From an uncultured Clostridia bacterium (GTDB taxonomy: Bacteria; Bacillota; Clostridia; Christensenellales; UBA1242): a DNA stretch of 64,000 nt. The position numbers were made by a program, and so were the translations under genes. The notes under the pieces were generated by a model that worked only from the letters and a program-made list of their open reading frames with translations, ran no database searches and was not told the origin of the DNA. The DNA is taken from the NCBI GenBank assembly GCA_944381825.1, contig CALWMK010000003.1, forward strand, positions 1,987-65,986, read 5' to 3'. Below, piece after piece: positions 12,953 through 55,186 of the stretch; the stretch's first letter is position 1; each line of letters opens with the position of its first letter.

Positions 12953-13441
12953 ATGAAAAAAAATAATAAAACAAAAATAAAACAAACTTTTGATATGCCA
13001 ATTATAAAAAATTCAAAATGTTTTGAATTTACTATTTTATCGATTAATAAATCCTTTTATGAAAAAAGAAAAAAGGTTGAAAAGTCATATAAAAAAGTAA
13101 TTTTTATTATTTTAGCTTCTACCTTAATAGGTTTTACAAATGGATTTTTTGGAGGTGGAGGGGGTATGCTTTGTGTGCCATTGCTCGAAAAAAGTTTGAA
13201 TATCAGCAACAAAAGGGCGCATGCAACCACAATTGCTGTTATAGTTCCATTGAGTTTGGTAAGTTCTATAGTTTATTTTTTAAAAAATGATTTAAATGTT
13301 TTTGACCTTTTATATACATCAATTGGAGTCTTCATAGGTGGTGCACTTGGAGCTGTTTTATTAAAAAAATTCAGTGGCAAAGTTATTAGAGTGATTTTTG
13401 CTTTACTTATGCTGATTGCTGGAATAAAAATGGTGATATGA
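12953..13441 (+). CDS. TauE/SafE (TSUP) family half-size membrane protein, subunit 1
   Basis: 4-TM half of the TSUP fold with GFFGGGGGMLCVPLL. Lys-rich N-terminal extension. Start could alternatively be ATG 12995. Confidence 0.7.
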   Translation: MKKNNKTKIKQTFDMPIIKNSKCFEFTILSINKSFYEKRKKVEKSYKKVIFIILASTLIGFTNGFFGGGGGMLCVPLLEKSLNISNKRAHATTIAVIVPLSLVSSIVYFLKNDLNVFDLLYTSIGVFIGGALGAVLLKKFSGKVIRVIFALLMLIAGIKMVI

Positions 13442-13809
13442 TGATATTTTTTTTAATTTTATTTGGTTTTCTTGCTGGTGTGATTGGTGGAATGGGAATG
13501 GGCGGAGGAACAATTTTAATTCCTATGCTGACCATATTTTTATCTTTTTCACAAACAAATGCACAAGGAATTAATTTGATATGCTTTTTCTTTTTAGCGC
13601 TTCCTGCTTTAATAATTCATTTCAAAAATAAAATGATTGAAACCCATCTTCTTTGGATTATTATGCTGTCAGGCTTGCTTTTTAGTTTATTTGGTGCTTT
13701 TGTTGCTAATTTAATTGACGGAAAATTTTTAAAAATTGTGTTTGGAATTTTTTTAATATTGCTTTCCATATGGCAATTTGTTAAAATATTCATTGAAAAA
13801 ACAGAATGA
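13438..13809 (+). CDS. TauE/SafE (TSUP) family half-size membrane protein, subunit 2
   Basis: GVIGGMGMGGGTILIPML plus 4 TM helices. ATGA start/stop overlap with the upstream half. Confidence 0.75.
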   Translation: MMIFFLILFGFLAGVIGGMGMGGGTILIPMLTIFLSFSQTNAQGINLICFFFLALPALIIHFKNKMIETHLLWIIMLSGLLFSLFGAFVANLIDGKFLKIVFGIFLILLSIWQFVKIFIEKTE

Positions 13810-16751: not shown

Positions 16752-17744
16752 ATGGATAATAATATAATTTTAGAATTGGGTGGATGCTTTGTTAAAGCTT
16801 ATACAAAACAAAATGGACTTATTTTTAAGGAACCTTCTTATGTTGCTTGTGTAAAGATGGGTGAATCTTATCAAGTTAGGGCAATAGGTTTAGATGCAAA
16901 AAAGATATCTGACATTGATGATGAAAACAACTTTATTTTTTCTCCCTTTGGAGAAGGTAAAATAAAAAATAATGAATATGCCATTTTATTTATAAATTAT
17001 CTTTTGAAAAAATCTAATATTAAGAAACCGCTGTTTTCTTCGTTGAATGCAATTGTAATAGTTCCAAGTTCGAATACTATGCAAGATCGTTCAGAAATTT
17101 CAAAAGTTCTTTGTGCTTGTGGTTTTGAAAATGTAAAATTTATACCTAATGCTATTTGTGTAAGTTCATATATAGGTATGTCAAAATATTCTTCTAAAGT
17201 TAACCTTGTGGTTGACATAGGTGGAAGCAAAACTGATGTTTCTCTTTCCACTTTTGATTCAATTTTAAATGGTGCTACAATTAATTTGGGCGGAAAGGGG
17301 ATGAACAAATCTGTTCTTGATTTCGTTTCAAATAAATATAATATTGATTTACCAATTGTTTTGGCTGAAAAAATCAAAGAAGAGTTAGCTTCTTTATATG
17401 ATAACGATGTTTCCAGCATGAAAATCAGAGCTTATGATAATGTTTCTGATTCAGAAATTGTTGTAATTGTTCATGCTCAAGATGTAAGAGAGGCAATTTT
17501 ACCTTATTTTGAAGAGATTTCAAAATTAATTGAAACCACTTTAAATATGTGCAATCAAGAAATTTTATCTCAAATACGTAATAATGGAATTTATCTTTGT
17601 GGGTCTGTAGCAAAAACTACTGGTTTGGAAAAATTTTTTCATGATAGATTTTTACTACCTATAAATATTATAGAAAATTGTGATGATTGTGCGATTTTAG
17701 GTGCGGGAAAACTTTTGAAAACTTATCCGCAAATTTTTAAATAA
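16752..17744 (+). CDS. Divergent MreB-like actin-fold protein
   Basis: Collinear with MreB (EPSYVA, VVDIGGSKTDVSLS, LCGSVAKTTGLEKFF, ILGAGKLL). The phosphate-1 motif is altered (LELGGCFVKAY). Confidence 0.65.
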   Translation: MDNNIILELGGCFVKAYTKQNGLIFKEPSYVACVKMGESYQVRAIGLDAKKISDIDDENNFIFSPFGEGKIKNNEYAILFINYLLKKSNIKKPLFSSLNAIVIVPSSNTMQDRSEISKVLCACGFENVKFIPNAICVSSYIGMSKYSSKVNLVVDIGGSKTDVSLSTFDSILNGATINLGGKGMNKSVLDFVSNKYNIDLPIVLAEKIKEELASLYDNDVSSMKIRAYDNVSDSEIVVIVHAQDVREAILPYFEEISKLIETTLNMCNQEILSQIRNNGIYLCGSVAKTTGLEKFFHDRFLLPINIIENCDDCAILGAGKLLKTYPQIFK

Positions 17745-17873
17745 TATTTAAATTTATTGTTTTTTGTAATAATTCTAAAAAAAAGATTTGTTTTTAATTT
17801 TAAAATAAATTGAAAAAAAGTATTGAAATTATAATTAATATTTGATATACTTAAACAAGTAGGAGGCTTTAAG

Positions 17874-18107
17874 ATGTTTTTATTAGCAAATTCTTTGTTG
17901 GATTTTTTGTCAATTGATTTAGTGATTGTGGGGCTTGTTCTTGCTGCTTTGGGGTTTGCTTTTGCTCTTTTGGCAAAAAGAATTGCAAAAGCGGTTAGGC
18001 AGTCTAGTGAAATAGAACCAAATGATAAAGTTATGCTGATATTTAAGGCTTTAGGACTTGTGTGCATTGTTATTGCGCTCATTTTAATGATACTCGCAGT
18101 TAATTGA
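17874..18107 (+). CDS. Small 2-TM membrane protein, unknown function
   Basis: Strong SD (GTAGGAGG) 7 nt upstream, two hydrophobic helices, terminator downstream. Confidence 0.5.
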   Translation: MFLLANSLLDFLSIDLVIVGLVLAALGFAFALLAKRIAKAVRQSSEIEPNDKVMLIFKALGLVCIVIALILMILAVN

Positions 18108-25552: not shown

Positions 25553-26835
25553 ATTTAAAAAATAAAAATGTTTTTGTTTATGGACTTGGAAAATCGGGCA
25601 AAGCTTGTATAAATTTTTTGAACAAGCAAAATGCAAATGTTTTTGTTTATGATGACAACACTAGTTTAAAAAAAGAATACAAAAATTTTGTAGATGGGAA
25701 TTTTGATTTTACAAAACTCGACTTGGCAATTTTAAGTCCTGCAATTTATTGTGGAGCAATTTTTGAAAAACTAAAAAGTTTAAAAATTCCAACAATAAAT
25801 GAAATTCAACTTGCTTATGAGTTTTTTAAAGGCAAGTTTATTGCAGTTACTGGTACAAATGGCAAAACAACGACAGTTTCGCTTTTAGGTGAAATTTTTA
25901 AGCGCGCCAATTTTGACTGTGTTGTTTGTGGAAACATTGGTGTGCCTTTAATTTCATTATATGAACGGGATAATAAAGAAAAAATTTACATATTGGAAAT
26001 AAGCAGTTTTCAACTTGAGTATGTAACCAGCTTCAAACCATATGTTTCATGTATTTTAAACATTGCGCCAGACCACTTGAACAGGCACAAAACAATGGAA
26101 AACTACGAAAGAATTAAATTTTCAATTTGTAAAAATCAATCTAGAAATGACTTTTTGGTGTTAAATGAAAATTTGAAAGAAGCTTCTAAAAAATACAAAA
26201 TTAAGCCAAAAAGAAAATTGTTTGGAAGGGGTGGGGTTTGTGAAGAAAAAAATGGAATTGTTAACTACAATAATAATTTTGTTTTACATAAATCAATGGT
26301 TAAACTTTTGGGCGAAAAAAATTTAGAGAATGTTTTGGCTAGCATTATAGTTGCAAAGATATTTAAAATAAAAAATGAAATTATAGAAGATGTTGTTTAC
26401 GAATTTACTTCACTTGAACACAGAATTGAATTTGTGGCAAAGATTGGCGGAATTAGTTTTATTAATGATAGCAAGTCAACCAATGTGGCAAGCACTCTTT
26501 GTGCTTTGGAATGTTTTAAAAGCAAAAGTGTTGTTTTGCTGGTTGGCGGAATAGGCAAAAAAGAAGATTATTCTAAAATTTTTGGTTATGACAATTTGAA
26601 ATGTGTTGTTTGTTATGGAGATGCAAAAGATGAAATTTATGATTGTGGGCTAAATAAAAATTTTGATAAGATGTTAAAAGCAAAAAACTTAAAAGATGCT
26701 TTTGAAAAAGCTTATGTGCTTTCATGTGAAAATGATTTTGTTTTGCTTTCTCCAGCTTGTGCAAGCTTTGATGAATTTAGTGGCTTTGAGGAAAGAGGAC
26801 GCTGTTTTAAGGAGTTTGTAAATGAAAAAAAATAA
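25549..26835 (+). CDS. murD: UDP-MurNAc-L-alanine--D-glutamate ligase
   Basis: GTNGKTTT P-loop, Mur ligase layout, 4-nt overlap with mraY. Confidence 0.9.
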   Translation: MNLKNKNVFVYGLGKSGKACINFLNKQNANVFVYDDNTSLKKEYKNFVDGNFDFTKLDLAILSPAIYCGAIFEKLKSLKIPTINEIQLAYEFFKGKFIAVTGTNGKTTTVSLLGEIFKRANFDCVVCGNIGVPLISLYERDNKEKIYILEISSFQLEYVTSFKPYVSCILNIAPDHLNRHKTMENYERIKFSICKNQSRNDFLVLNENLKEASKKYKIKPKRKLFGRGGVCEEKNGIVNYNNNFVLHKSMVKLLGEKNLENVLASIIVAKIFKIKNEIIEDVVYEFTSLEHRIEFVAKIGGISFINDSKSTNVASTLCALECFKSKSVVLLVGGIGKKEDYSKIFGYDNLKCVVCYGDAKDEIYDCGLNKNFDKMLKAKNLKDAFEKAYVLSCENDFVLLSPACASFDEFSGFEERGRCFKEFVNEKK

Positions 26836-27955
26836 AAAGAACTTTTTTAAAATGGACACAACTGCTTGGGTAGTACTTATATGCATAATACTATTAGTTG
26901 TGTTTGGTTGCATTATGGTTTATAGTGCAAGTTATTATTCTGCTGGATTAAATGGAGGAAATCAATATAGATTTTTAATAAAACAAATTATCGGTGTTTT
27001 GTTTGGCTTTGCTGGCTTGATTTTTTTTATGATTTTTCCATATAACAAACTTAAAAAATTTAAGTGGTGGGCGGTTTTAATTAGTGTTGTTCTTTTGGTA
27101 CTTGTCTTTGTTCCTGTGATTGGTATTGAAAACTATGGTGCTAGAAGATGGATTGGTGCATTTGGTTTTTCTTTTCAACCAAGTGAAATTGCCAAATTTG
27201 CTCTCGTTTTATTTTGCGCCTGTCATTTATCTGATAATTATGAAAAAGTTAAATCTTTTAAAACTTTGCTTCCTGTTTTGGGTGTTGGCGCGATTTTTTG
27301 TGTTCTAATTATATTAGAACCTAACATGAGCATAACTATGTGTGTTGCAATAACTCTTGTAATTATGCTTTTTGTGGGAGGGATTAGTGCAAAGCATTTT
27401 TCAGCTCTTGCTGTGCCCGGAATTTTGGCTGTGCCTGCTTTGATTTTTTTAGAGCCTTACAGAGTTAAAAGGTTAATGGCATTTTTAGATCCTTGGGCTT
27501 CTCCAAAAGCTGAAGGTTTTCAACTCATTCAATCTTTATATTCGCTTGGCTCTGGCGGTTGGTTTGGTGTTGGGCTTTTTAATTCTAGGCAAAAATATTT
27601 GTTTTTGCCGTTTTGTGAAAGCGATTTTATTTTTTCCATAATCGGCGAAGAACTTGGCTACATTGGTTGTTTGGGTGTACTTGGAATTTTTGCGGTTTTA
27701 GTTTGCTTTTTAATTAAAATTGCGCTTGAGGCAAAAGACAGATTTGGTGCGCTTTTGGTTACAGGAATTGCTTCAATAATCGCCACTCAAGTTTTAATCA
27801 ATGTTGCCGTTGTAACAGGCTCCATTCCACCAACGGGCTTGCCACTTCCGTTTATCAGTGCAGGGAGCACATCGCTTGTTGTTTTCATGAGCGCAATTGG
27901 TGTTTGCTTGAATGTTAGAAAGCAGAGTAGACAGGCTGAAATTAATATTAATTAA
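26822..27955 (+). CDS. ftsW: FtsW/RodA/SpoVE-family peptidoglycan glycosyltransferase
   Basis: SEDS features: FQPSE, ESDFIFS, LPLPFISAGSTS. Position is after murD. Confidence 0.85.
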   Translation: MKKNKKNFFKMDTTAWVVLICIILLVVFGCIMVYSASYYSAGLNGGNQYRFLIKQIIGVLFGFAGLIFFMIFPYNKLKKFKWWAVLISVVLLVLVFVPVIGIENYGARRWIGAFGFSFQPSEIAKFALVLFCACHLSDNYEKVKSFKTLLPVLGVGAIFCVLIILEPNMSITMCVAITLVIMLFVGGISAKHFSALAVPGILAVPALIFLEPYRVKRLMAFLDPWASPKAEGFQLIQSLYSLGSGGWFGVGLFNSRQKYLFLPFCESDFIFSIIGEELGYIGCLGVLGIFAVLVCFLIKIALEAKDRFGALLVTGIASIIATQVLINVAVVTGSIPPTGLPLPFISAGSTSLVVFMSAIGVCLNVRKQSRQAEININ

Positions 27956-28043
27956 TAAATTTGTCATTATCCTTCATTTTTGTTGATTTGTTTAAAATTT
28001 CTTTGTGGCAAAGTGCAAGAGTGTTACGCATTTTATTGGTTGT

Positions 28044-28072
28044 TTGACATAAACTGAAAAATTTGGTATATT
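28044..28072 (+). promoter_or_regulatory. Sigma-A promoter with extended -10 driving the large ncRNA
   Basis: TTGACA (28044-28049), 17-nt spacer, TGgTATATT (28064-28072). Confidence 0.6.
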
Positions 28073-28078
28073 ATACAC

Positions 28079-28706
28079 ATCTAGAGGCGCAGTATTCTAG
28101 TCGTCATTTCATTCGGGAGGATGATTAAAAGCATCGAAGGGCATAACTGTGAAGTTTCTGGTGCTTGCTTTGGTTGCCCAAACTGGGGTGAGTGCTGGGA
28201 GTTAAGATTTTTGGGCGCACTATAACGGCATATAGTACACGACCCAATTATCGTGGAGACCTATGCTTGGTAGAAATAAAGGTTTGTCCTTACATTCTAC
28301 TGGATAGGATAAAACCTGCATTGCGGTGCAAAAGCTGTGTGCAGAGTAGCCTGCTTTGAGTGATGTTTAGGGGATATTGACTTCAAGCGACATCTTCAAA
28401 GGGCCTAATGAAACTGTTGCTGTAATTGAAACTAACATTGCAAAAAAAGCTAACGAAATGAAAATGGCGTTAAGGAAAACTTCTAGACTGTTGACTTGGT
28501 TCAGGTTTTTGAGGGATTATAGTGTGGTCTAAGTGGCGATTCGGTGAATTTGTTTGTTTAAAAGGAAACTGCTTATACGGCGACGATGAGTACAAACAAC
28601 AGGGAAATCCTACCGAACCTATGCCGCAAGGTTTACTTCAAAAATTGCCTCTATACATAATGATTTTAGATTTTGTTTGTAAAACATTTCTAAAATCATT
28701 TTTTTT
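28079..28706 (+). ncRNA. Large structured non-coding RNA, OLE-class candidate (about 0.6 kb)
   Basis: There is no credible ORF. G+C is far above the flanks (31/60 in 28141-28200 against 10/60 in 28681-28740, my count). It has its own promoter and terminator. Closing helix TAGAGGC (28082-28088) / GCCTCTA (28647-28653). Many local helices, e.g. 28227-28232/28262-28267 with 28238-28241/28252-28255, 28280-28285/28312-28317, 28316-28320/28340-28344, 28616-28620/28629-28633. A 4-TM protein gene follows, then argR-recN, as in described OLE/oapA loci. Confidence 0.7.
28659..28706 (+). terminator. Intrinsic terminator at the 3' end of the ncRNA
   Basis: 12-bp stem AATGATTTTAGA (28659-28670) / TCTAAAATCATT (28689-28700), then T-run 28701-28706. 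Confidence 0.8.
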
Positions 28707-28754
28707 ATTATATAATAAGTTATAGACTTAAAAAGGAAGTAGGGTTAATAAAAA

Positions 28755-29402
28755 ATGGAAAACCAAACTAATGGGAATAATGATTCTAAAAAAAGGAAGG
28801 TTAAAACAACATCTAAGAAAGTAAAGTGGTATATTTGGCCCATTAAGATATTTTTTCTTGCTTTTGCCTTGTCATTAGTATTTAGTATTGGAAGTGAATA
28901 TTTAACTTCGGCTACAGGAATTGTGTTTTCTATTCTTATAATAATTCTATTTATATCGATTTCAATTATAACGGATATGATTGGTGTTGCTGTAACTGCT
29001 TGTGCCATTGAACCTTTTGCAGCAATGGCATCTAAAAAAGTTAAAGGTGCAAAAGAGGCTATGTTACTAATTAAAAATGCAGACAAGGTTGCAAGCTTAT
29101 GCGCCGATGTGCTTGGCGATGTTTGTGGAATTTTGAGTGGTGCTGCAGGTGCAGCTATTGTAATAAAAGTTACAGAAGGTATGACTAGCAATGCTGGAAT
29201 AATTCTTGTTGCCTCTTTAATAAGTGCTTTTATTGCTGGTTTGACGATTTTTGGAAAGGCGTTAGGGAAAAAGTTTTCGCTTGATAATTGTAATAAAATT
29301 ATTTTATTTGTTGGGAAATGTCTGAGCCCTTTTCGTTCTAAAAAAGCTCAAGCAAATCAAAATAAGGATAGTGTAAAAAATGTTGAAAAAGATAACTTAT
29401 AA
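28755..29402 (+). CDS. oapA: Basic 4-TM membrane protein, OapA-like (OLE-associated protein candidate)
   Basis: Lys/Arg-rich N-terminus (KKRKVKTTSKKVKW), four predicted TM helices, about 23 kDa, located immediately 3' of the ncRNA. Assignment rests on position and architecture, not on recognised sequence motifs. Confidence 0.55.
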   Translation: MENQTNGNNDSKKRKVKTTSKKVKWYIWPIKIFFLAFALSLVFSIGSEYLTSATGIVFSILIIILFISISIITDMIGVAVTACAIEPFAAMASKKVKGAKEAMLLIKNADKVASLCADVLGDVCGILSGAAGAAIVIKVTEGMTSNAGIILVASLISAFIAGLTIFGKALGKKFSLDNCNKIILFVGKCLSPFRSKKAQANQNKDSVKNVEKDNL

Positions 29403-29432
29403 ATTTTATTAAAACCTATTTAGAAATTTTAT

Positions 29433-29465
29433 AAAATCTTTGTCTTTAGGCAAAGATTTTTTTTG
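29433..29465 (+). terminator. Intrinsic terminator after the oapA-like gene
   Basis: 10-bp stem AAAATCTTTG / CAAAGATTTT, 8-nt loop, T-run. Confidence 0.75.
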
Positions 29466-29670
29466 TGCCTTTGGTTTGGGTGGAAATTTACTATTAAGAT
29501 AAAGAAATATTTTTAACTTATATTTATATAACATATAAGCATTTATTAAACTTTGAAAAATGAATTAAAAGAAGCAAGACCATTGCAAAAATAAAATATG
29601 CATAAATGATTATATTTATAAATCCTGTTTTTATAGATATTCAAAAGTTCAAATTTTTATAAAAATTGAC

Positions 29671-29762
29671 TGAATAATTATGCAAAAATCGCTTGCATAA
29701 TTATAAATTTCATTGTATAATCATTAAAAAGTGATGAATATATATTAATTTATATTTATTCA
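29671..29762 (+). promoter_or_regulatory. ARG-box-like operator half-sites around the argR promoter
   Basis: Matches to TGAAT-4-ATTCA: TGAATAATTATGCA (29671-29684), TGCATAATTATAAA (29694-29707), TGAATATATATTAA (29735-29748), TTTATATTTATTCA (29749-29762). The AT-rich background makes chance matches likely. Confidence 0.35.
29693..29721 (+). promoter_or_regulatory. Putative argR promoter
   Basis: TTGCAT (29693-29698), 17-nt spacer, TATAAT (29716-29721). Confidence 0.5.
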
Positions 29763-29818
29763 CAAATCGCTGAAAGCCTTATTTTATAAGGGATTTATGA
29801 AAAAAAGGAACGAGTAAG

Positions 29819-30277
29819 ATGGCAAGGTCAAAAAGACAATCAAAAATTTTAGAATTGATTTCAACTAATGAAATTGAAACCCAAGATGAATTGGTTACAT
29901 ATTTGAAAAATGCTAATTTTGATATTACTCAAGCCACAATTTCGAGAGATATTAAAGAATTAGGATTAATCAAAATCCTTAGTCAAGAAACTGGTAAATA
30001 CAAATACTCTCTTGTTGAAACAAATGAAACTGCGGTTTCAAACAAAAACATTTGCATCTTTAAAGAAGCTGTTATTTCTATTAGAACGGCTCAAAATCTT
30101 TGCGTTATAAAAACCATAAAAGGCATGGCTTCAGCAATTTGTGGATTGATTGACAAATTAAATTTAGATTCACTTATGGGGGCTGTAAGCGGTGACGACA
30201 CGATAATGGCAATATTCCCTAATTTTGATTTCGCACAAAATGCAACACACACTCTTTTAAATATTTCTTCAAATTAA
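29819..30277 (+). CDS. argR: Arginine repressor
   Basis: Winged-helix N-domain (QATISRDIKELGL) and C-terminal oligomerisation domain (GAVSGDDTIM). Confidence 0.9.
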   Translation: MARSKRQSKILELISTNEIETQDELVTYLKNANFDITQATISRDIKELGLIKILSQETGKYKYSLVETNETAVSNKNICIFKEAVISIRTAQNLCVIKTIKGMASAICGLIDKLNLDSLMGAVSGDDTIMAIFPNFDFAQNATHTLLNISSN

Positions 30278-30288
30278 ATAGGTATATT

Positions 30289-31971
30289 ATGATACAGAAC
30301 ATTAGAATAAAAAATGTCGCACTCATAGAAGAAGCGACATTAGAGTTTGATAAAGGTTTTAATGCTTTAATGGGTGAAACAGGCGCGGGAAAGAGCATCA
30401 TACTTGAGGCTCTTAATTTTGTTTTAGGTTCTAGAGCTGATAAATCGCTTATTATGAGTGGAAAAGATAAAATGTTTGTTGAAGCAGTATTTTCAAATTT
30501 AAGCTTAGAATGCTTGAACACTTTAAATGACCTTGGTTATGATGAAGAAGATTTAGTTATTTCAAGAACACTTAATCAAGAGGGAAAAAGTGAAATTAGA
30601 ATTAATGGTAATTTATCATCTCTTTCTATTTTAAAATCAATAACAAAAGATTTGGTTGATTCCTACTCACAGCATGAAAACACAACTTTGCTAAACAATA
30701 AAAACCATTTGTTACTTCTAGATGGTGGCATTGAGGAGTTGCTTGCAGATAATAAAATTAAACTTAAAAATTTAATCCAAGAAAAAAATGAAACCAAAAA
30801 ACAAATTCAACTTTTATGTGGCAATGGTGAAAACAGAGAAAGATATTTAGAGTTATTAAAATATCAAATCGACGAAATTGAATCATTGATGCCAACGCAG
30901 GAAGAAGAAGACGAACTTTTAGAAAGATTTCAAGTTATGCAAAACTCTGAAAAGATTTCTTCAACCCTGGAAAATGTCTTAGAATTTTTAGATTCAACAC
31001 AATTTTCTGCTATTACAAATTTAAAAAGCGCGCTTCGTGGTTTGGCAAATATAAGAGAAATTAACAATGATTTTTTAACTGCTTATGAAAAACTAGATTC
31101 TTTAATATATGAACTTGATGATTTAGTATCATTGTTAAAGCGCCAATCTCGCTGTTTAATTTTTAATGAAAGTGAATTTGAAGCGATTGATACTAGACTT
31201 GATAAATATAGGGATATTAAAAAAAAGTATGGGCAAAGAATATCTGATGTTTTGAAATATTTGGAAAAATCAAAGATTGAATATGATAATCTAATAAACA
31301 GTGAGGAAAAAATAAAGCAACTTGAAGAAAAAATAGTTGCAATTGATTCTTCTGCTTTAGAGATATGCAAAGAAATTTCTAATGCTAGAAAATCATATGC
31401 GAAAAAACTTGAAGAAGCTGTAATGAAAGAGCTTTCATATTTAGGAATGAAAAATGCCAAATTAAGCTTTGATTTTGTTCAACAAGATGAATATAACCAA
31501 AATGGATATGACGATGTTGAAATTTTGTTTTCTGCAAATAAGGGAGAGCAAGTGAAAGCTCTTTCAAAAGTCATTTCAGGGGGTGAATTGAGCAGATTTA
31601 TGCTAGCCCTTAAGTCCGTTATTGTAAGTTGTGGAAATATCTTTGTTTTTGATGAAATTGACACTGGAATAAGTGGTGAAACTGCCAATGCTGTCGGTGA
31701 AAGAATTGCAATTCTTTCAAAACATAATCAAGTTATTTTGATTAGTCATTTACCACAAGTGTGTTCAATGGCTGATAGATTTTTCTATGTTTTTAAAACA
31801 GTAGGCGACAGAACAATTTCTAATTGCAAAATGCTTGATGAAAATCAAATTTATGTTGAACTCGCAAAACTTATTGGAGGTGATAAACAGAGCGAGTTGG
31901 GTATATTGCATGCTAAAGAAATGTTAGAAAAAGCAGCAAAATTTAAAGCTAATATTCAAATAAAAAGCTAA
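30289..31971 (+). CDS. recN: DNA repair protein RecN
   Basis: Walker A GETGAGKS, signature SGGELSR, Walker B VFDEIDTG, central coiled coil. Confidence 0.95.
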   Translation: MIQNIRIKNVALIEEATLEFDKGFNALMGETGAGKSIILEALNFVLGSRADKSLIMSGKDKMFVEAVFSNLSLECLNTLNDLGYDEEDLVISRTLNQEGKSEIRINGNLSSLSILKSITKDLVDSYSQHENTTLLNNKNHLLLLDGGIEELLADNKIKLKNLIQEKNETKKQIQLLCGNGENRERYLELLKYQIDEIESLMPTQEEEDELLERFQVMQNSEKISSTLENVLEFLDSTQFSAITNLKSALRGLANIREINNDFLTAYEKLDSLIYELDDLVSLLKRQSRCLIFNESEFEAIDTRLDKYRDIKKKYGQRISDVLKYLEKSKIEYDNLINSEEKIKQLEEKIVAIDSSALEICKEISNARKSYAKKLEEAVMKELSYLGMKNAKLSFDFVQQDEYNQNGYDDVEILFSANKGEQVKALSKVISGGELSRFMLALKSVIVSCGNIFVFDEIDTGISGETANAVGERIAILSKHNQVILISHLPQVCSMADRFFYVFKTVGDRTISNCKMLDENQIYVELAKLIGGDKQSELGILHAKEMLEKAAKFKANIQIKS

Positions 31972-32144: not shown

Positions 32145-33380
32145 ATGAAAAATAATTTGTTTAAAAAGGTTGTAATAAAATCATTTGGAGTTTTGCTTTG
32201 TATAGCTTTTGTAACATTGATTGTAAATACAGATTTCTCAGTATTTTCTTTAACTAATGGCTCTTATATTTCTTATGAACAACTAAATGAATTAAATGAA
32301 AATGCTAGATTTGGAAAATTCATATCAGCTTCTCTCGCAGATGAAGGAATTGATGTGGGAAATGGTTTAAAAAAGTCTAAATTAAAATTTAAATTATTTG
32401 GATTGTTTACCGTAAAAGAAGTTGGGGTTAATGTAAGCGATGGTAAAGAAGTTTATGTTGGAGGCATTCCATTAGGTTTTGCTCTTGATACAAAAGGAGT
32501 AATAGTTATTGGTGAAAATAGTGTAAACACACAGCATGGTAGTATAATTCCAGAAAAAAGTGAAGAAGTTTTGGCTGGTGATATTTTAACAAAAATAAAC
32601 GACAATGAAATTACAAGTGTTGAAATCATAAAGCAAGAATTAGAAAAGAGTAATGGAAGTGTTATTAAAGTTAAAGCTATGAGAAAAGATAAGGAGTATG
32701 AGTTTTCTTTAAAACCAGCTCTTGATGTTGAAAGTGGAAAATATAAGTTAGGATTATGGGTCAGAGATGATGCTTCTGGTATAGGAACTTTGACTTATGT
32801 TGACAAGCAATCAAAAGCATATGGTGCACTTGGTCATGCTATTACCGATTTTGAAACAGGAGCGGTTGTTCCAGTTCAAGATGGAAAAATATATAATTGT
32901 TCTTTAATTGGAATAAACAAAGGCAAAAAAGGAAAACCGGGTGAACTGAGATGCCTATTTTTACAAGGTAAAAATAGTAAAGGAGATGTGCAATTAAATA
33001 CTTCTTCAGGAGTTTTTGGGAAAGTTGAAACAACACAGGGTATTATAGATGAAAATCTTGTCGCTACTATTGGTGGGCGAATGAGTGTAAAACCAGGTCC
33101 AGCAAAAATTGTTAGTTCGGTTAGTGGTGTAAGAGAGGAATATGAAATTGAAATTATCAAAGCAAATTATCAAAGCAAAAGCAGCGATAAGAGTTTGGTA
33201 TTTAGGGTTAAAGATAAAAGATTGTTAAGCTTAACAGGAGGAATTTTGCAGGGGATGAGTGGTAGCCCAATCTTGCAAGACGGAAAACTTATTGGGGCGG
33301 TTACACATGTTTTTTTAAATGACCCAACAAAAGGTTATGGGATATATGTAGATTGGATGCTCGAAAATAAAGTGATTTAA
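32145..33380 (+). CDS. spoIVB: SpoIVB peptidase (S55) with PDZ domain
   Basis: GIGTLTYVD, GALGHAI and GMSGSPI catalytic context. N-terminal TM anchor. Canonical position after recN. Confidence 0.9.
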   Translation: MKNNLFKKVVIKSFGVLLCIAFVTLIVNTDFSVFSLTNGSYISYEQLNELNENARFGKFISASLADEGIDVGNGLKKSKLKFKLFGLFTVKEVGVNVSDGKEVYVGGIPLGFALDTKGVIVIGENSVNTQHGSIIPEKSEEVLAGDILTKINDNEITSVEIIKQELEKSNGSVIKVKAMRKDKEYEFSLKPALDVESGKYKLGLWVRDDASGIGTLTYVDKQSKAYGALGHAITDFETGAVVPVQDGKIYNCSLIGINKGKKGKPGELRCLFLQGKNSKGDVQLNTSSGVFGKVETTQGIIDENLVATIGGRMSVKPGPAKIVSSVSGVREEYEIEIIKANYQSKSSDKSLVFRVKDKRLLSLTGGILQGMSGSPILQDGKLIGAVTHVFLNDPTKGYGIYVDWMLENKVI

Positions 33381-48867: not shown

Positions 48868-49890
48868 TTATCTTAGTTTAACTTTGCTTGCTGCATTTCG
48901 CCTGATATCATCGCTTAATGCGGCATAATGCCTTTTTGTTGTATTTACATCTTTATGGCCTAAAACATCTGCTACAACATAAATATCGTTTGTTTCTCTA
49001 TACAAATTTGTGCCATAAGTGCTTCTTAATTTGTGAGGAGAAATTTTTTTTAATGGATTTACAATTTTACTAAATTTTTTAACAAGATTTTGCACAGCTC
49101 TAGTTGAAATTCGTTTTTTTTGTAGCGATAAGAAAAAGGCATTGTCATTAATTTCTAATAAATCTCTTTGCTTTTTATATTCTAATAGCGCGTCTTTTAC
49201 TTCATCTGAAAAATAAAGCACAACTTGGTTTCCGCCCTTTCGAGTAATTTTAAAAGCATTTGATGCAAAGTCAATATCTTCTATATTTAAACCAACAAGT
49301 TCGCTCACACGAATTCCAGTCCCTAAAAAGACGCTTAAAATTGCAACATCTCGTTTTGCAGTATGTTTGTTATATGATGCTTGAGTTTTAGATTCAAAAT
49401 TTGAATTTTCGGCTTCATTTAATATTTTAGCAACTTCGTCAATCTCCAAACGGATTATATCTTTTTGATGTAGCTTTGGTGTTTGAATTTTTGAAGCCAC
49501 ATTAGATGTGATTTTGTCTTTATTATAAAAAAATTTCAAAAAGCTTCTGACACTTGCAAGTTTTCGAGCTTTTCCTCTTTCTCCATTGTGAAAATTTTTA
49601 TTATCAAAAGTATAGTAGGTGAGATAGCTCAAATATCCTTCTATATCTGTCGATGTTAATTTATCTAAATCAGACAAGGTTATTGCTTTTGCATTTTTAT
49701 CAAATTTGTATTTTGACAAATAGTCAAAAAAAATCCTAAGGTCCATTGCATAGTTCATTCTTGTTAATGTAGATGTGTAATTTTCCATACCTATAAAAAA
49801 TTCAAAGCAAAAATCTGGCATATCATTTAAAAAATTTGCTATGTGTTTTGTGTTTTGTTTATTTCTTTCCAAAAAATAATTTGTCTTCAT
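48868..49890 (-). CDS. Tyrosine recombinase, XerC/XerD-like
   Basis: Catalytic region ..GIRVSEL.., HKLRSTYGT, GHKDVNTTKRHYA (R-H-R-Y context). Confidence 0.8.
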   Translation of the reverse strand: MKTNYFLERNKQNTKHIANFLNDMPDFCFEFFIGMENYTSTLTRMNYAMDLRIFFDYLSKYKFDKNAKAITLSDLDKLTSTDIEGYLSYLTYYTFDNKNFHNGERGKARKLASVRSFLKFFYNKDKITSNVASKIQTPKLHQKDIIRLEIDEVAKILNEAENSNFESKTQASYNKHTAKRDVAILSVFLGTGIRVSELVGLNIEDIDFASNAFKITRKGGNQVVLYFSDEVKDALLEYKKQRDLLEINDNAFFLSLQKKRISTRAVQNLVKKFSKIVNPLKKISPHKLRSTYGTNLYRETNDIYVVADVLGHKDVNTTKRHYAALSDDIRRNAASKVKLR

Positions 49891-53480: not shown

Positions 53481-54313
53481 AAATTTTTCATCCTGCCTTT
53501 TTGGTTTTTATGATTGTGCTTTTAATTTTTGGCTATGGTTTTTTGGCTGTTGTTTATTTGATGGCGCTTGTTTTTCATGAACTAGGTCATGCATTTGTTG
53601 CTAAAAAATTTGGCTATAAATTAAAAAGTTTTTATTTAATGCCTTATGGAGCTTGCTTGTCTTATGAAGAGCATGTTTTTTTAGAAAATGAAGAGTTTTT
53701 AATTGCTATCGCTGGACCATTAATGAATTTATTTTTATGTTTAATTTGTATTGCTCTATGGTGGATTTTTCCAGTAATGTACGCGTTGACATTAGATTTT
53801 GTAAGTGCAAACTTTTTTTTGGCTCTTTTAAATTTTCTTCCAGCTTTTCCATTGGATGGAGGAAGAATTTTATTAGCAAATTTATCAAATAAAATGGATA
53901 GAAAAAAGGCGATTAAAATTAGTTTAATATTTAACTATGTTTTTTGCTTTATATTTATTTTTGTTTTCATTATTTCTTGTTTTAACAAAATAAATTTTTC
54001 TTTTTTAATTATGGCTATTTTTCTTTTTCTTAGTGTCTTTGATGGAAAATTCCAAGGCAAATATCAAAGAATATTTTCTCAAGATAAAAGCAAAATATTA
54101 AAAAAAGGAATTAAATTAAAAACAATGGCTTTTTCATCAAAAGTACCACTTTATAAAATATCTAGAGAAATTTCTAGCACTAAATATAATGTATTTTTTA
54201 TTGTTTCTGAAAGTGGCAAGGCTAAATTGATGAGTGAAAATAGTTTGAAAAGTATTATAGAACGAAATAATGCAAATGATAGTTTTTCTGATATTTTTCC
54301 TAATTTTGAATAA
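53477..54313 (+). CDS. spoIVFB: M50 site-2 metalloprotease, SpoIVFB-like (pro-sigma-K processing enzyme candidate)
   Basis: HELGHAFVA (HExxH) in a TM helix, NFLPAFPLDGGR, six TM helices, CBS-like C-terminal domain, about 280 aa, directly downstream of pro-sigK. Confidence 0.7.
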   Translation: MKIFHPAFLVFMIVLLIFGYGFLAVVYLMALVFHELGHAFVAKKFGYKLKSFYLMPYGACLSYEEHVFLENEEFLIAIAGPLMNLFLCLICIALWWIFPVMYALTLDFVSANFFLALLNFLPAFPLDGGRILLANLSNKMDRKKAIKISLIFNYVFCFIFIFVFIISCFNKINFSFLIMAIFLFLSVFDGKFQGKYQRIFSQDKSKILKKGIKLKTMAFSSKVPLYKISREISSTKYNVFFIVSESGKAKLMSENSLKSIIERNNANDSFSDIFPNFE

Positions 54314-54323
54314 CATATTTTAT

Positions 54324-54827
54324 ATGAAACAAACATTAAAGTATATTCTTGAAAGACTAATACAACTAAGGAAATTTGCAGAAGAAAAACATAGTATAAC
54401 TATTGCATTAGCAAGTGGTGTAATAGTATTTTTTGCTGGTTTTATCGAAAGTCGCGATCCTTTTATTTTATTTTTATCAGCTTTGTCGATTATTTTTAGC
54501 CTAATATCTGTTCTTTCAAGTTTTATTGCGTTAATGGCAAAACGCGTCAAAACCAATAGAAAAAAAAGTGCAACTGAAGGCGATTTAATGGACTATAAAT
54601 CTATAAGCAAATTTAACTATGAAGGATATTTAGAATCTATTAAAAAGCAATATAACTTTCCTATAACTTATAAATTTGATGATTTTGATAGAGATTTATC
54701 TAGACAAATTATTGCAACAGCTAAAGTTATATTACACAAATTTTCATATTTTAACATTGCGCTTTTATTTTTGGGTTTGAGTCTTGTGTTAGGTGTGATT
54801 GTTGTTTGTATTTTGGGTGGGGTATGA
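54324..54827 (+). CDS. 3-TM membrane protein of unknown function (resembles 2-3TM effector families such as Pycsar-TM/DUF5706 or SLATT)
   Basis: N-terminal helix ..LRKFAEEKHSITIALASG.., TM1-TM2 hairpin, soluble segment of about 70 aa, C-terminal TM. No SD. The family call rests only on architecture and a weak motif resemblance. Confidence 0.45.
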   Translation: MKQTLKYILERLIQLRKFAEEKHSITIALASGVIVFFAGFIESRDPFILFLSALSIIFSLISVLSSFIALMAKRVKTNRKKSATEGDLMDYKSISKFNYEGYLESIKKQYNFPITYKFDDFDRDLSRQIIATAKVILHKFSYFNIALLFLGLSLVLGVIVVCILGGV

Positions 54828-55186
54828 CAATGCCAGAAGATTTTGTTTTTTGGATAAAAAGCATTGTTGAAGATGACCCAATCCCGTATGAAATCGATCA
54901 TTTATATTTTGCACTTTCAATGAAAAACAAAATCGCCAGTTTGTGTCTTGGTGGGCGTGAACAAAACTCAGAAATCATAGGCGATTTTGAATATTTTCCA
55001 TTGGAAGCGCAATTCTTTTTTAATCGAACTTTTAATAATATTACGGACGCATATCTAGCAAAACTCGCTATAAAGCAACTTCTTGACTATGCTTTAGATG
55101 ATGTCGAAATTAGAAAAATTTTTAAAAACAAAAAAGTATATATAGGCGAGTTTCAAAGATGTGTGGAATATAGCATTCAATTATAA
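54824..55186 (+). CDS. Small cytoplasmic protein, unknown function
   Basis: ATG 54824 forms an ATGA overlap with the upstream stop and follows GGGTGGGG. 120 aa, acidic, no TM helix. Confidence 0.5.
   Translation: MTMPEDFVFWIKSIVEDDPIPYEIDHLYFALSMKNKIASLCLGGREQNSEIIGDFEYFPLEAQFFFNRTFNNITDAYLAKLAIKQLLDYALDDVEIRKIFKNKKVYIGEFQRCVEYSIQL

Follow-up and report, generated by a model that had tools for sequence, protein, structure and literature searches.

An OLE RNA gene without the P13 hairpin lies next to oapA in an uncultured Clostridia bacterium

OLE (ornate, large, extremophilic) RNA is a class of structured bacterial noncoding RNA. It has been published as an abundant, stable RNA (about 600 nt) in a particle with several proteins, OapA among them, at the membrane. 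The published features of OapA are a DxxxD motif, four transmembrane helices, a basic cytoplasmic cluster, and a CNNM-like sequence and fold. ROOL, GOLLD, HEARO, raiA, RNase P RNA, and tmRNA are likewise large, highly structured, and conserved noncoding RNAs; ROOL, GOLLD, and OLE have all been published as homo-oligomers. Within OLE, P3/P3.1 is a proposed membrane-spanning stem. P4 is a dimer contact in the cryo-EM models, the P5.1 and P6.1 loops are the two sides of an intermolecular kissing contact (L5.1-L6.1), and the apical palindrome of P9 makes a symmetric dimer kissing loop. P13, with a GNRA loop and a single-nucleotide bulge, is the main high-affinity OapB site, and the four-way junction is OapB-bound. 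In the variant 1 OLE RNAs (Fernando and Breaker 2024, PMC11332333), the P13 nucleotides that bind OapB are absent, and P7, P8, and P9 are shorter. The variant 1 RNAs were found in gut bacteria with reduced genomes, in which oapB and oapC are largely missing, and were proposed to work in the absence of high-affinity OapB binding (PMC11332333).

The DNA analyzed herein is a 64-kb stretch, referred to as the window. The Rfam OLE model RF01071 matches the forward strand at 391.6 bits (E 1.5e-111) against a threshold of 50, and the alignment spans model positions 1-616 of 616. The OLE-class RNA proposed here by a preliminary description is thus supported over the whole model. The highly conserved (upper-case) Rfam consensus positions are kept at 205 of 245, and 40 differ. 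The score equals that of the relatives and of one full-length Oscillospiraceae example. When all 4227 Rfam families were scanned permissively, no competing family fell below E = 2.8 in the region. The six other large RNA families named above differ from OLE in that none of them, raiA included, matches the region at E values up to 10; RNase P, tmRNA, ROOL, GOLLD, and HEARO were the negative models listed in the preliminary description. A dedicated scan found no tRNA or tmRNA in the 64-kb window. We put the probability at about 96% that 28079-28706 on the forward strand is an OLE RNA gene of about 600 nt with its own promoter and terminator, lacking P13 and likely lacking high-affinity OapB binding.

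28068 to 28667, forward strand: OLE RNA (RF01071 match), with the structured core from P1 to P1 at 28082-28653
26822 to 27955, forward strand: ftsW/spoVE, upstream, the last gene of the murE-mraY-murD-ftsW cluster
28755 to 29402, forward strand: oapA; the 215-aa membrane protein has DxxxD, a basic N-terminus, and four long hydrophobic helices

The class is known from Gram-positive anaerobes and extremophiles (Bacillota), and the sporulation genes spoIVB and ftsW/spoVE in the window fit such a host. The related loci are mostly from metagenome-assembled genomes of Clostridia and other Bacillota, and two records (L051 and L077) are titled Muribaculaceae. NCBI labels of the relatives include Clostridia bacterium, Christensenella sp., and Candidatus Caccopulliclostridium, and the NCBI taxonomy places them in Clostridia incertae sedis or leaves them unclassified, with no assignment to the GTDB order TANB77.

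The gap from ftsW/spoVE to the next gene (27956-28754, 799 nt) is the longest between large ORFs in the window. The G+C content of the RNA is 42%, compared with 29.2% for the whole window, and the rise noted previously (31/60 in 28141-28200) is exact. The gap had been described as holding no credible ORF. This stands in that its longest ORF (28522-28725) has 67 aa and no Pfam hit; the statement that it is the only one does not, as several small ORFs are present, all of at most 67 aa. Could the gap encode one or more small proteins, such as that ORF? Such ORFs of 40-67 aa do lie on both strands, and one gene caller annotated the equivalent place in a conspecific contig (L082); however, three other conspecific records carry no gene call there. 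The 67-aa ORF, without a family match, crosses the terminator and ends after it, not inside the terminator stem as previously stated. In the homologues, moreover, substitutions track base-pairing and not codons. Small-protein coding is therefore considered extremely improbable.

The fold itself is conserved. The consensus structure was evaluated in 37 homologues, where 84.6% of the cells were paired, compared with 41-45% when the partners were slid. Covariation among these related intergenic regions was strong for the consensus helices, with compensatory double changes at 116 of the 148 pairs. None of 500 shuffles reached the observed values of pairing and covariation. Long runs of invariant sequence occupy the junctions and loops. 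In this copy, 136 of the 149 consensus pairs are canonical and 13 are non-canonical; Infernal flagged three non-canonical pairs in the distal part of P7 and four in that of P9. The MAFFT alignment is unreliable in distal P4 and distal P9, with values there of 38-55% paired.

The elements of the 5' part of the RNA are as follows.

28082 to 28088, forward strand: P1 5' strand, TAGAGGC, partner of 28647-28653
28647 to 28653, forward strand: P1 3' strand, GCCTCTA, partner of 28082-28088
28089 to 28100, forward strand: long-range helix, 5' strand (GCAG-UAU-UCUAG), pairs with 28483-28491
28483 to 28491, forward strand: long-range P3/P3.1-like helix, 3' strand (CUAGACUGU), pairs with 28089-28100
28120 to 28135, forward strand: P4 hairpin with the A-rich loop UUAAAAG; 4 bp here, 6 in the Rfam consensus
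28145 to 28154, forward strand: J4a/5 (AACUGUGAAG), one kink-turn strand, OapC-bound in B. halodurans
28155 to 28201, forward strand: P5/P5.1 hairpin of 20 bp, loop GCCCA at 28176-28180
28206 to 28252, forward strand: P6/P6.1, loop AACGGC at 28225-28230, then A28231 and U28232, both invariant
28260 to 28308, forward strand: P7, short form, 81.7% paired
28316 to 28344, forward strand: P8, short form, 91.4% paired with nine covarying pairs; contains CTGCA/TGCAG
28353 to 28450, forward strand: P9 long arm, full length, palindrome GGCC at 28402-28405 in the apical loop

The closing helix TAGAGGC/GCCTCTA recognized in the preliminary description is P1, which is 93.3% paired in the 37 homologues with changes on both sides in six of its seven pairs. 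The long-range helix that follows is 98.6-100% paired with compensatory changes at three pairs, and we infer from its fit to the published description that it is P3/P3.1. P4 is 37.8% paired in the poor MAFFT alignment of this hairpin. For P5/P5.1, all 20 pairs are canonical, 96.6% are paired across the homologues, and 14 covary. The L5.1 sequence GCCCA and the L6.1 sequence GGCAU (28228-28232) are invariant among the homologues. The P9 palindrome is GGCC in 57 of 72 RNAs and GUAC, GCGC, or AGCU in the remainder. The dimer elements (the A-rich loop of P4, L5.1/L6.1, and the P9 palindrome) and the proposed membrane-spanning helix are thus all kept here.

Around the candidate kink-turn at the base of P5 (for OapC/YbxF), J4a/5 (C28147 and UGAAG), J5/6 (UUAAG), and J6/7 (CGUGGAGAC) are conserved; the published models differ on the partner strand. 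The critical C (28147) and the UGAA of J4a/5 are invariant among the homologues (alignment positions C80, T83, G84, A85, and A86). This RNA carries A at the position that corresponds to U84; the U84A change weakened binding in vitro in B. halodurans.

Among the interior helices proposed previously, CTGCA/TGCAG is the only one in agreement with the consensus, as P8. The candidates GGCATA/TATGCT, CACG/CGTG, and AGGTTT/AAACCT were rejected. They occupy conserved loop or junction nucleotides and were 44-56% paired in the 37 homologues, with almost no double changes and no real covariation. The 87% pairing of AACCT/AGGTT arises through conservation alone, and this helix overlaps P12.1 and P12.2.

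The 3' domain contains the main departure from full-length OLE RNA.

28504 to 28646, forward strand: 3' domain with P12, P12.1, P12.2, P14, P14.1, and P15
28504 to 28514 with 28636 to 28646, forward strand: P12
28523 to 28527 with 28624 to 28628, forward strand: P12.1
28540 to 28545 with 28612 to 28617, forward strand: P12.2
28546 to 28549, forward strand: site of the absent P13, where GAAU joins P12.2 to P14
28550 to 28557 with 28592 to 28599, forward strand: P14
28571 to 28579 with 28584 to 28591, forward strand: P14.1, GCGA loop at 28580-28583
28602 to 28610, forward strand: P15, supported by the homologue comparison

The 3' domain helices (15-19 of the alignment) are 90-99% paired with many compensatory changes. 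P13 is absent. Three of the four linker nucleotides (AAU) replace the GNRA-loop hairpin of about 21 nt, and 19 positions of RF01071 are replaced by 1 nt. Neither this RNA nor any of its 19 closest relatives has the hairpin, but 51 others do, and the interval that spans its site is 22-24 nt in the P13-less RNAs compared with 40-43 nt in the P13-bearing RNAs. Without P13, the four-way junction P12.2/P13/P14/P15 is reduced to a three-way one. The preliminary description did not spot this short form without P13 and its OapB site.

Compared with full-length OLE RNA (RF01071; Halalkalibacterium halodurans and Clostridium acetobutylicum), this RNA has the same helix order, the conserved junctions, and all the dimerization elements, and the locus shares oapA directly downstream with argR-recN beyond. 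It differs in that the OapB-bound four-way junction is a three-way junction without P13, and in that P4 is shorter. Like variant 1 (PMC11332333), it has no P13 and short P7 and P8, keeps the remaining highly conserved nucleotides, and comes from uncultured low-G+C Clostridia known via metagenome-assembled genomes. The P7 region has 52 nt here, with medians of 41 nt in the P13-less group and 63 nt in the others, and P8 has 27 nt compared with a median of 46 in the P13-bearing RNAs. Unlike the shorter P9 published for variant 1 (PMC11332333), P9 is not shortened here, with 89 nt as in the P13-bearing RNAs (89 nt). These sequence features agree with variant 1 (Fernando and Breaker 2024), although the full-length P9 makes the match incomplete. 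High-affinity OapB binding is most likely not part of how this RNA works, in line with the proposal for variant 1.

Among the 39 window ORFs scanned against Pfam, which left out 10 ORFs between positions 1 and 17744, there was no oapB, oapC, or mpfA, and all were housekeeping or sporulation genes. No small protein of L7Ae/YbxF or KOW type was found in the 64-kb window, which was the scope of this search within the genome. Two small unassigned ORFs (17723-18082, reverse strand, and 54806-55186, forward strand) have no relatives in the PDB.

A decaying, non-functional OLE remnant in a reduced genome would also have lost P13, carry a short P4, P7, and P8, and show deviations of the kind counted above, the 13 non-canonical pairs and the 40 deviating conserved positions. 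The same architecture, however, is common to 19 relatives whose OapA proteins are only 47-83% identical, and in these the compensatory changes preserve the helices while the junction and loop sequences stay invariant. Next to the RNA, oapA is both intact and well conserved. Conspecific strains share 99.3-99.6% identity across the OLE region, and the score is no lower than that of the relatives or of the full-length Oscillospiraceae example. Decay is thus very improbable, and a functional P13-less OLE RNA remains the preferred reading.

The transcript signals predicted around the RNA are given below.

28044 to 28072, forward strand: promoter, with -35 TTGACA at 28044-28049, a 17-nt spacer, and the extended -10 TGgTATATT at 28064-28072
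28659 to 28706, forward strand: intrinsic terminator, an AT-rich hairpin at 28659-28700 and then a U run up to 28706
29433 to 29460, forward strand: terminator-like hairpin and T run after oapA

Both the extended -10 promoter and the 12-bp stem with its T run had been proposed previously, and both are upheld. The promoter scores 11/12 with the upstream TG present and is the best site in the region; transcription is predicted to start near 28079-28080. In 15 of the 19 P13-less relatives, the conserved GCAGUAU is preceded at 12-17 nt by a TGn-type -10 element, and in six more distant loci tested this distance is 12-23 nt; the TG of the extended -10 is present in 23 of these 25 loci. The terminator fold (-12.9 kcal/mol, z = -4.5) has an outer stem of 12 bp and an inner one of 5 bp. 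The same hairpin is present in one related record (L001) and comparable ones in several relatives; several other relatives have no recognizable hairpin and T run between OLE and oapA. The outer 12 bp consist of A-U and G-U pairs alone, without any G-C pair. The consensus terminator scan missed this terminator because it demands at least three G-C pairs; folding recovered it. From its sequence, the terminator may be leaky. The promoter scan found no separate oapA promoter between the terminator and the oapA start; therefore, co-transcription of OLE and oapA is likely. Where the transcript starts and ends, and that it is discrete, is predicted from these elements.

The same signals bear on an alternative in which the region is no independent RNA but serves chiefly as an extended, structured 5' leader within the oapA mRNA, acting in cis, for example on oapA translation or stability. 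The oapA gene starts 88 nt past the end of the Rfam match and only 48 nt past the U run of the terminator. This short distance, the absence of a promoter hit within it, the G-C-free outer stem, and the relatives without a hairpin would all suit a leader. However, about 600 nt with extensive covariation is far beyond what a leader needs, and the OLE gene is about 3 kb away from oapA in two loci (L034 and L058). The window and many relatives have a hairpin with a T run after it, and OLE has been published as an abundant RNA of a multi-protein particle. Co-transcription followed by termination or processing also fits an OLE RNA gene. The leader is therefore improbable, and the OLE RNA gene is retained as the main reading.

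The gene downstream pairs with the RNA across the family. The OLE gene is directly upstream in 76 of 80 homologous oapA loci, and it was confirmed by Rfam in the six loci tested. The protein had been described as a 4-TM protein and behaves as OapA. Its basic N-terminus reads KKRKVKTTSKKVK, the DxxxD motif is D118-VLG-D122, and D74, D118, and D122 do not vary among 34 homologues; in all, 1021 homologues were found, of about 200-250 aa. The structure model, of moderate confidence (pLDDT 72.5), has long helices at 27-54, 56-82, 109-140, and 146-177. The CNNM profile PF01595 gives 18.9 bits (E 1.3e-3) with this protein, under the Pfam threshold of 28.4, and is matched by 30 of 34 relatives. Searches of the sequence against the PDB, with the single sequence and with a profile, gave no meaningful hit. 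When the model was searched by fold against the PDB, the best six matches were CorB/CorC, with weak E-values (0.006 to 0.5). The protein thus resembles the CNNM/MpfA/CorB Mg2+ transporters in its CNNM profile match, which is weak, and in its best structural matches, CorB/CorC; unlike them, it has no CBS or CorC/HlyC domains. The 215-aa gene is oapA with a predicted four-helix CNNM-like membrane fold.

The genes beyond oapA follow the order given in the preliminary description (RNA, oapA, argR, recN, spoIVB).

29819 to 30277, forward strand: argR, conserved downstream neighbor
30289 to 31971, forward strand: recN, conserved downstream neighbor
32145 to 33380, forward strand: spoIVB, conserved downstream neighbor

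In most homologous loci, argR-recN follows oapA, and the order OLE-oapA-argR-recN-spoIVB is the ancestral context. The ftsW/spoVE context upstream is specific to this lineage. Compared with the loci of full-length OLE RNAs, the genes that commonly separate oapA from argR (about 3.5 kb in the Oscillospiraceae loci) are absent here, and the upstream neighbor is ftsW/spoVE and not xseA or ispA. In a tentative and rather doubtful reading, the gene would have moved beside the peptidoglycan cluster murE-mraY-murD-ftsW/spoVE in this sub-lineage, perhaps in connection with the link to the cell wall that has been proposed for the 3' domain.

By analogy with published work in other species, the RNA would bind the CNNM-like membrane protein OapA. 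It would form a homodimer via the A-rich loops of P4, the kissing contact of L5.1 with L6.1, and the P9 palindrome, and the P3/P3.1 helix may traverse the membrane beside OapA. The membrane-associated ribonucleoprotein would help the cell withstand stresses, among them cold, excess Mg2+, poor carbon sources, and short-chain alcohols. In the leading hypothesis, the RNA would take on the regulatory or sensing roles that belong to the cytoplasmic domains in the all-protein CNNM/MpfA Mg2+ transporters.

The class is already curated in Rfam and the variant was described in 2024, so the locus is no new kind of element. The genome is also public: an identical oapA with a 99.3% identical OLE region is already in an NCBI metagenome-assembled genome. 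The novelty given to the locus previously was therefore overrated. Gene callers that look for proteins alone either report nothing in this 800-nt region or place a spurious 67-aa ORF there. OLE is among the largest and best conserved bacterial noncoding RNAs of unsolved biochemical role, which gives the annotation of each copy some value. It is a tentative and rather doubtful proposition that the P13-less clade shows OLE particles working with a three-way 3' junction without high-affinity OapB, and perhaps with weaker OapC binding; if true, the P13-less lineage would be a natural minimal OLE-OapA system. As a compact natural form without P13, with short P7 and P8, with only oapA beside it, and with the dimer contacts kept, this RNA may be useful both for defining what a minimal functional particle needs and for structural studies of the unresolved 3' domain.

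The whole window was searched against Rfam 15 at curated thresholds, and OLE (RF01071) was the sole match. The match lies in the 799-nt gap (27956-28754) that separates ftsW/spoVE (26822-27955) from the next gene; no other gap between large ORFs of the window is as long. The transcription unit and the adjoining gene are listed below.

Features of the OLE locus (window coordinates, strand, description)
28044-28072, +, promoter, TTGACA-17-TATATT with the TATATT after TG; 11/12, best-scoring site in the region
28068-28667, +, OLE RNA (RF01071), 391.6 bits (threshold 50), E = 1.5e-111, aligned to model positions 1-616 of 616
28659-28700, +, terminator hairpin, 12-bp outer and 5-bp inner stem, -12.9 kcal/mol, z = -4.5
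28755-29402, +, oapA, 215 aa

The OLE assignment proposed in the preliminary description, whose coordinates were accurate, was thereby verified with the covariance model at full length. Since nothing besides OLE scored below E = 2.8 in a permissive scan of 27900-28800, RNase P, tmRNA, ROOL, GOLLD and HEARO are all negative there. The reported G+C rise (31/60 at 28141-28200) was reproduced, and the OLE RNA has a G+C content of 42% versus 29.2% for the window. The absence of credible coding in the gap also stands: no ORF on either strand exceeds 67 aa, and the one at 28522-28725 matches no family. It is not the only ORF, as had been stated, but one of several small ones, and it ends past the terminator rather than inside the stem. 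The equivalent 67-aa ORF in the OLE 3' domain of a related locus (L082:2768-2971) is called a protein in one public gene call, and the region is left empty in three other conspecific records; the call is probably wrong.

The Rfam model structure was mapped onto the window sequence, giving 136 canonical pairs out of 149, and 205 of the 245 highly conserved consensus positions are kept. In a 37-sequence alignment, the Rfam structure was 84.6% paired, versus 41-45% when the partners were slid by 1-3 columns. Changes on both sides were found in 116 of 148 pairs. The covariation score was 0.514 versus 0.11-0.15 in the slid controls, and none of 500 shuffles reached the observed values.

Individual helices named from the single sequence fared differently. 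The closing helix TAGAGGC/GCCTCTA corresponds to P1 (93% paired, compensatory changes in 6 of 7 pairs), and CTGCA/TGCAG is supported as P8. AACCT/AGGTT, which overlaps with P12.1 and P12.2, shows conservation without covariation. GGCATA/TATGCT, CACG/CGTG and AGGTTT/AAACCT were only 44-56% paired and were rejected; their nucleotides fall in the invariant L6.1 loop and the junctions J6/7 and J7/8. P15 (28602-28610) is supported in the homologue alignment. A long-range helix absent from the Rfam annotation, 28089-28100 with 28483-28491, fits the published P3/P3.1; it is 98.6-100% paired, and three of its pairs covary. Loci L054, L062, L033 and L017 have an additional G+C-rich hairpin, about 20 nt long, between P5 and P6 (columns 148-170 of the homologue alignment); it is a feature of some Oscillospiraceae OLE RNAs, unlike the window RNA and the Rfam consensus.

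The extended -10 promoter proposed earlier is the top site of the region. A TGnTATAAT-type -10 element lies 12-17 nt 5' of the conserved GCAGUAU in 15 of the 19 closest relatives, and 12-23 nt 5' of it in six more distant loci tested; the TG is found in 23 of 25 loci. This conservation argues for a dedicated OLE promoter. The 12-bp stem and T run, reaching 28706 as described, were confirmed by folding. The consensus terminator scan missed this hairpin because its stem is without G-C pairs. A hairpin and T run between OLE and oapA are present in the window, in locus L001 (the same hairpin) and in about half of the loci that lack hairpin P13 (see below). No promoter was found in the scan between the terminator and oapA, so partial read-through into oapA is likely.

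The product of this gene shows every published hallmark of OapA, the membrane partner of OLE RNA, as had been suggested for the 4-TM protein 3' of the RNA. Neither Pfam nor NCBIfam assigns it to a family at threshold. Its N-terminus is basic, its predicted structure (pLDDT 72.5) has four long hydrophobic helices, and its DxxxD motif, D118-VLG-D122, is invariant among OapA homologues. It matches CNNM below threshold (E 1.3e-3), 30 of 34 relatives also match CNNM, and the six best PDB structural matches of the predicted protein are CorB/CorC Mg2+ transporters (probability 0.97-1.0). The protein has 1021 homologues. A representative-genome scan gave 80 loci encoding relatives, and 76 of them carry a homologue of the window RNA directly upstream on the same strand. 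OLE was confirmed by Rfam in six tested loci (344-523 bits).

Several loci depart from this arrangement. At L034:4243-4853 and L058:4918-5585, the OLE gene is about 2.6-3.2 kb upstream of oapA. On CALVNQ010000001.1, about 97 kb separate two OapA-like genes: an OLE gene lies upstream of the L015 copy, and the L037 copy (L037:8010-8609) has a 566-aa ORF directly upstream, with no OLE found there by nhmmer or Rfam. The OapA-like gene at L013:5545-6153 is followed by argR and recN; a 257-aa ORF occupies the upstream space, and a permissive Rfam scan found no OLE there. Either OLE was lost or moved, or this OapA is OLE-independent. Two OLE copies with identical nhmmer scores face opposite ways on one 11.5-kb contig (L060:7172-7816, +; L060:1233-1877, -), probably through an assembly error or an inverted duplication.

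The order RNA, 4-TM protein, argR, recN and spoIVB was confirmed in the window. In its 19 closest relatives argR-recN-spoIVB also directly follows oapA, and in Oscillospiraceae-type loci the oapA-argR spacing is about 3.5 kb. The window spacer (29403-29818, 416 nt, 18-20% G+C) has no ORF longer than 41 aa and starts with a terminator-like hairpin (29433-29460). Upstream, xseA is found in most of the 19 closest relatives and ispA in one full-length example. OLE was reportedly first described in 2006 in the context xseA-xseB-ispA-ole-oap-dxs, which these neighbors fit. The murE-mraY-murD-ftsW genes lie upstream only in the window, L001 and L012; the ftsW-OLE junction is therefore a lineage-specific rearrangement.

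The 39 window ORFs scanned against Pfam are those of an ordinary chromosome, including valS, lepA, a class A PBP, miaB, mutS, mutL, miaA, serS, a sigma factor, smc and ftsY. L7Ae-, KOW- and MpfA-type genes were absent among the scanned ORFs, a set that leaves out 10 ORFs between 1 and 17744. Two overlapping ORFs (12953-13441 and 13438-13809, +) match TauE/SafE sulfite-exporter profile positions 111-237 and 1-111, respectively, the reverse of the single-protein order, and may encode a transporter that is split, permuted or made of two subunits. The 185-aa product of 54270-54827 (+) matches the transmembrane domain of Pycsar effectors weakly, below threshold (22.8 bits versus 27.2, E 1.3e-4); the 126-aa ORF 3' of it (54806-55186, +) has no family or PDB relative. 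A tyrosine recombinase of the phage integrase family (48868-49890, -), between a methionine gamma-lyase-like gene and serS on the opposite strand, has no tRNA nearby and could be an XerC/D-type housekeeping recombinase or a mobile-element edge.

Just 3' of the P12.2 5' strand, a single nucleotide stands in for 19 model positions in the Infernal alignment. The missing element is P13. This hairpin has a GNRA loop and a bulge, is the high-affinity site of the partner protein OapB and docks on P12.2 in the crystal structure. P13 is absent from the window and all 19 closest relatives, where the interval is 22-24 nt. G[GNRA]C hairpins are retained by 51 more distant relatives, mostly Oscillospiraceae, whose interval measures 40-43 nt. 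The median lengths of P7 and P8 are 41 and 26 nt in the P13-less group versus 63 and 46 nt in the others; P9 is of normal length (91 versus 89 nt). The short OLE form variant 1 has shorter P7-P9, often misses the OapB site, and is known from uncultured gut bacteria whose genomes are reduced and largely lack OapB and the further partner OapC (Fernando and Breaker 2024, PMC11332333). The P13-less group matches variant 1 in the loss of P13 and the short P7 and P8, but not in P9, which is not shortened.

Without P13, the four-way junction would become a three-way one, and high-affinity OapB binding is most likely lost in this copy. The P14.1 GNRA loop (GCGA, 28580-28583) persists; it has been reported to bind OapB weakly, as a second site. 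Sequence conservation also covers the kink-turn region (C28147, UGAAG, UUAAG, CGUGGAGAC), on whose partner strand published models disagree. The position equivalent to U84 (B. halodurans numbering) is A; in the B. halodurans RNA, the change U84A reduced the in vitro binding of OapC.

The elements through which the RNA dimerizes in cryo-EM structures are retained: the A-rich loop of P4, the complementary loops L5.1 and L6.1, and the self-complementary loop of P9. The P9 loop tetranucleotide (window 28402-28405) is always a palindrome among 72 homologues (GGCC 57, GUAC 4, GCGC 2, AGCU 1), which independently supports intermolecular pairing. GUAC and GCGC are additional to the GGCC, GAUC and AGCU of the cryo-EM paper. 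Beside the OLE membership, fold, pairing with oapA and dimerization elements observed here, the literature suggests that an RNA dimer would bind OapA at the membrane, with P3/P3.1 possibly spanning the bilayer. The particle would help cells to tolerate Mg2+, cold, alcohol and poor carbon sources, and the RNA may take the regulatory part that cytoplasmic domains play in MpfA-type transporters.

The element is a known one, curated in Rfam, and was identified correctly. NCBI assembly GCA_964323845.1 and other public contigs contain an OapA identical to that of the window and an OLE region of 99.3% identity, and more than 2,800 OLE representatives and variant 1 were catalogued in 2024 (Fernando and Breaker 2024, PMC11332333). 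As a minimal natural system, the compact P13-less form retains some value.
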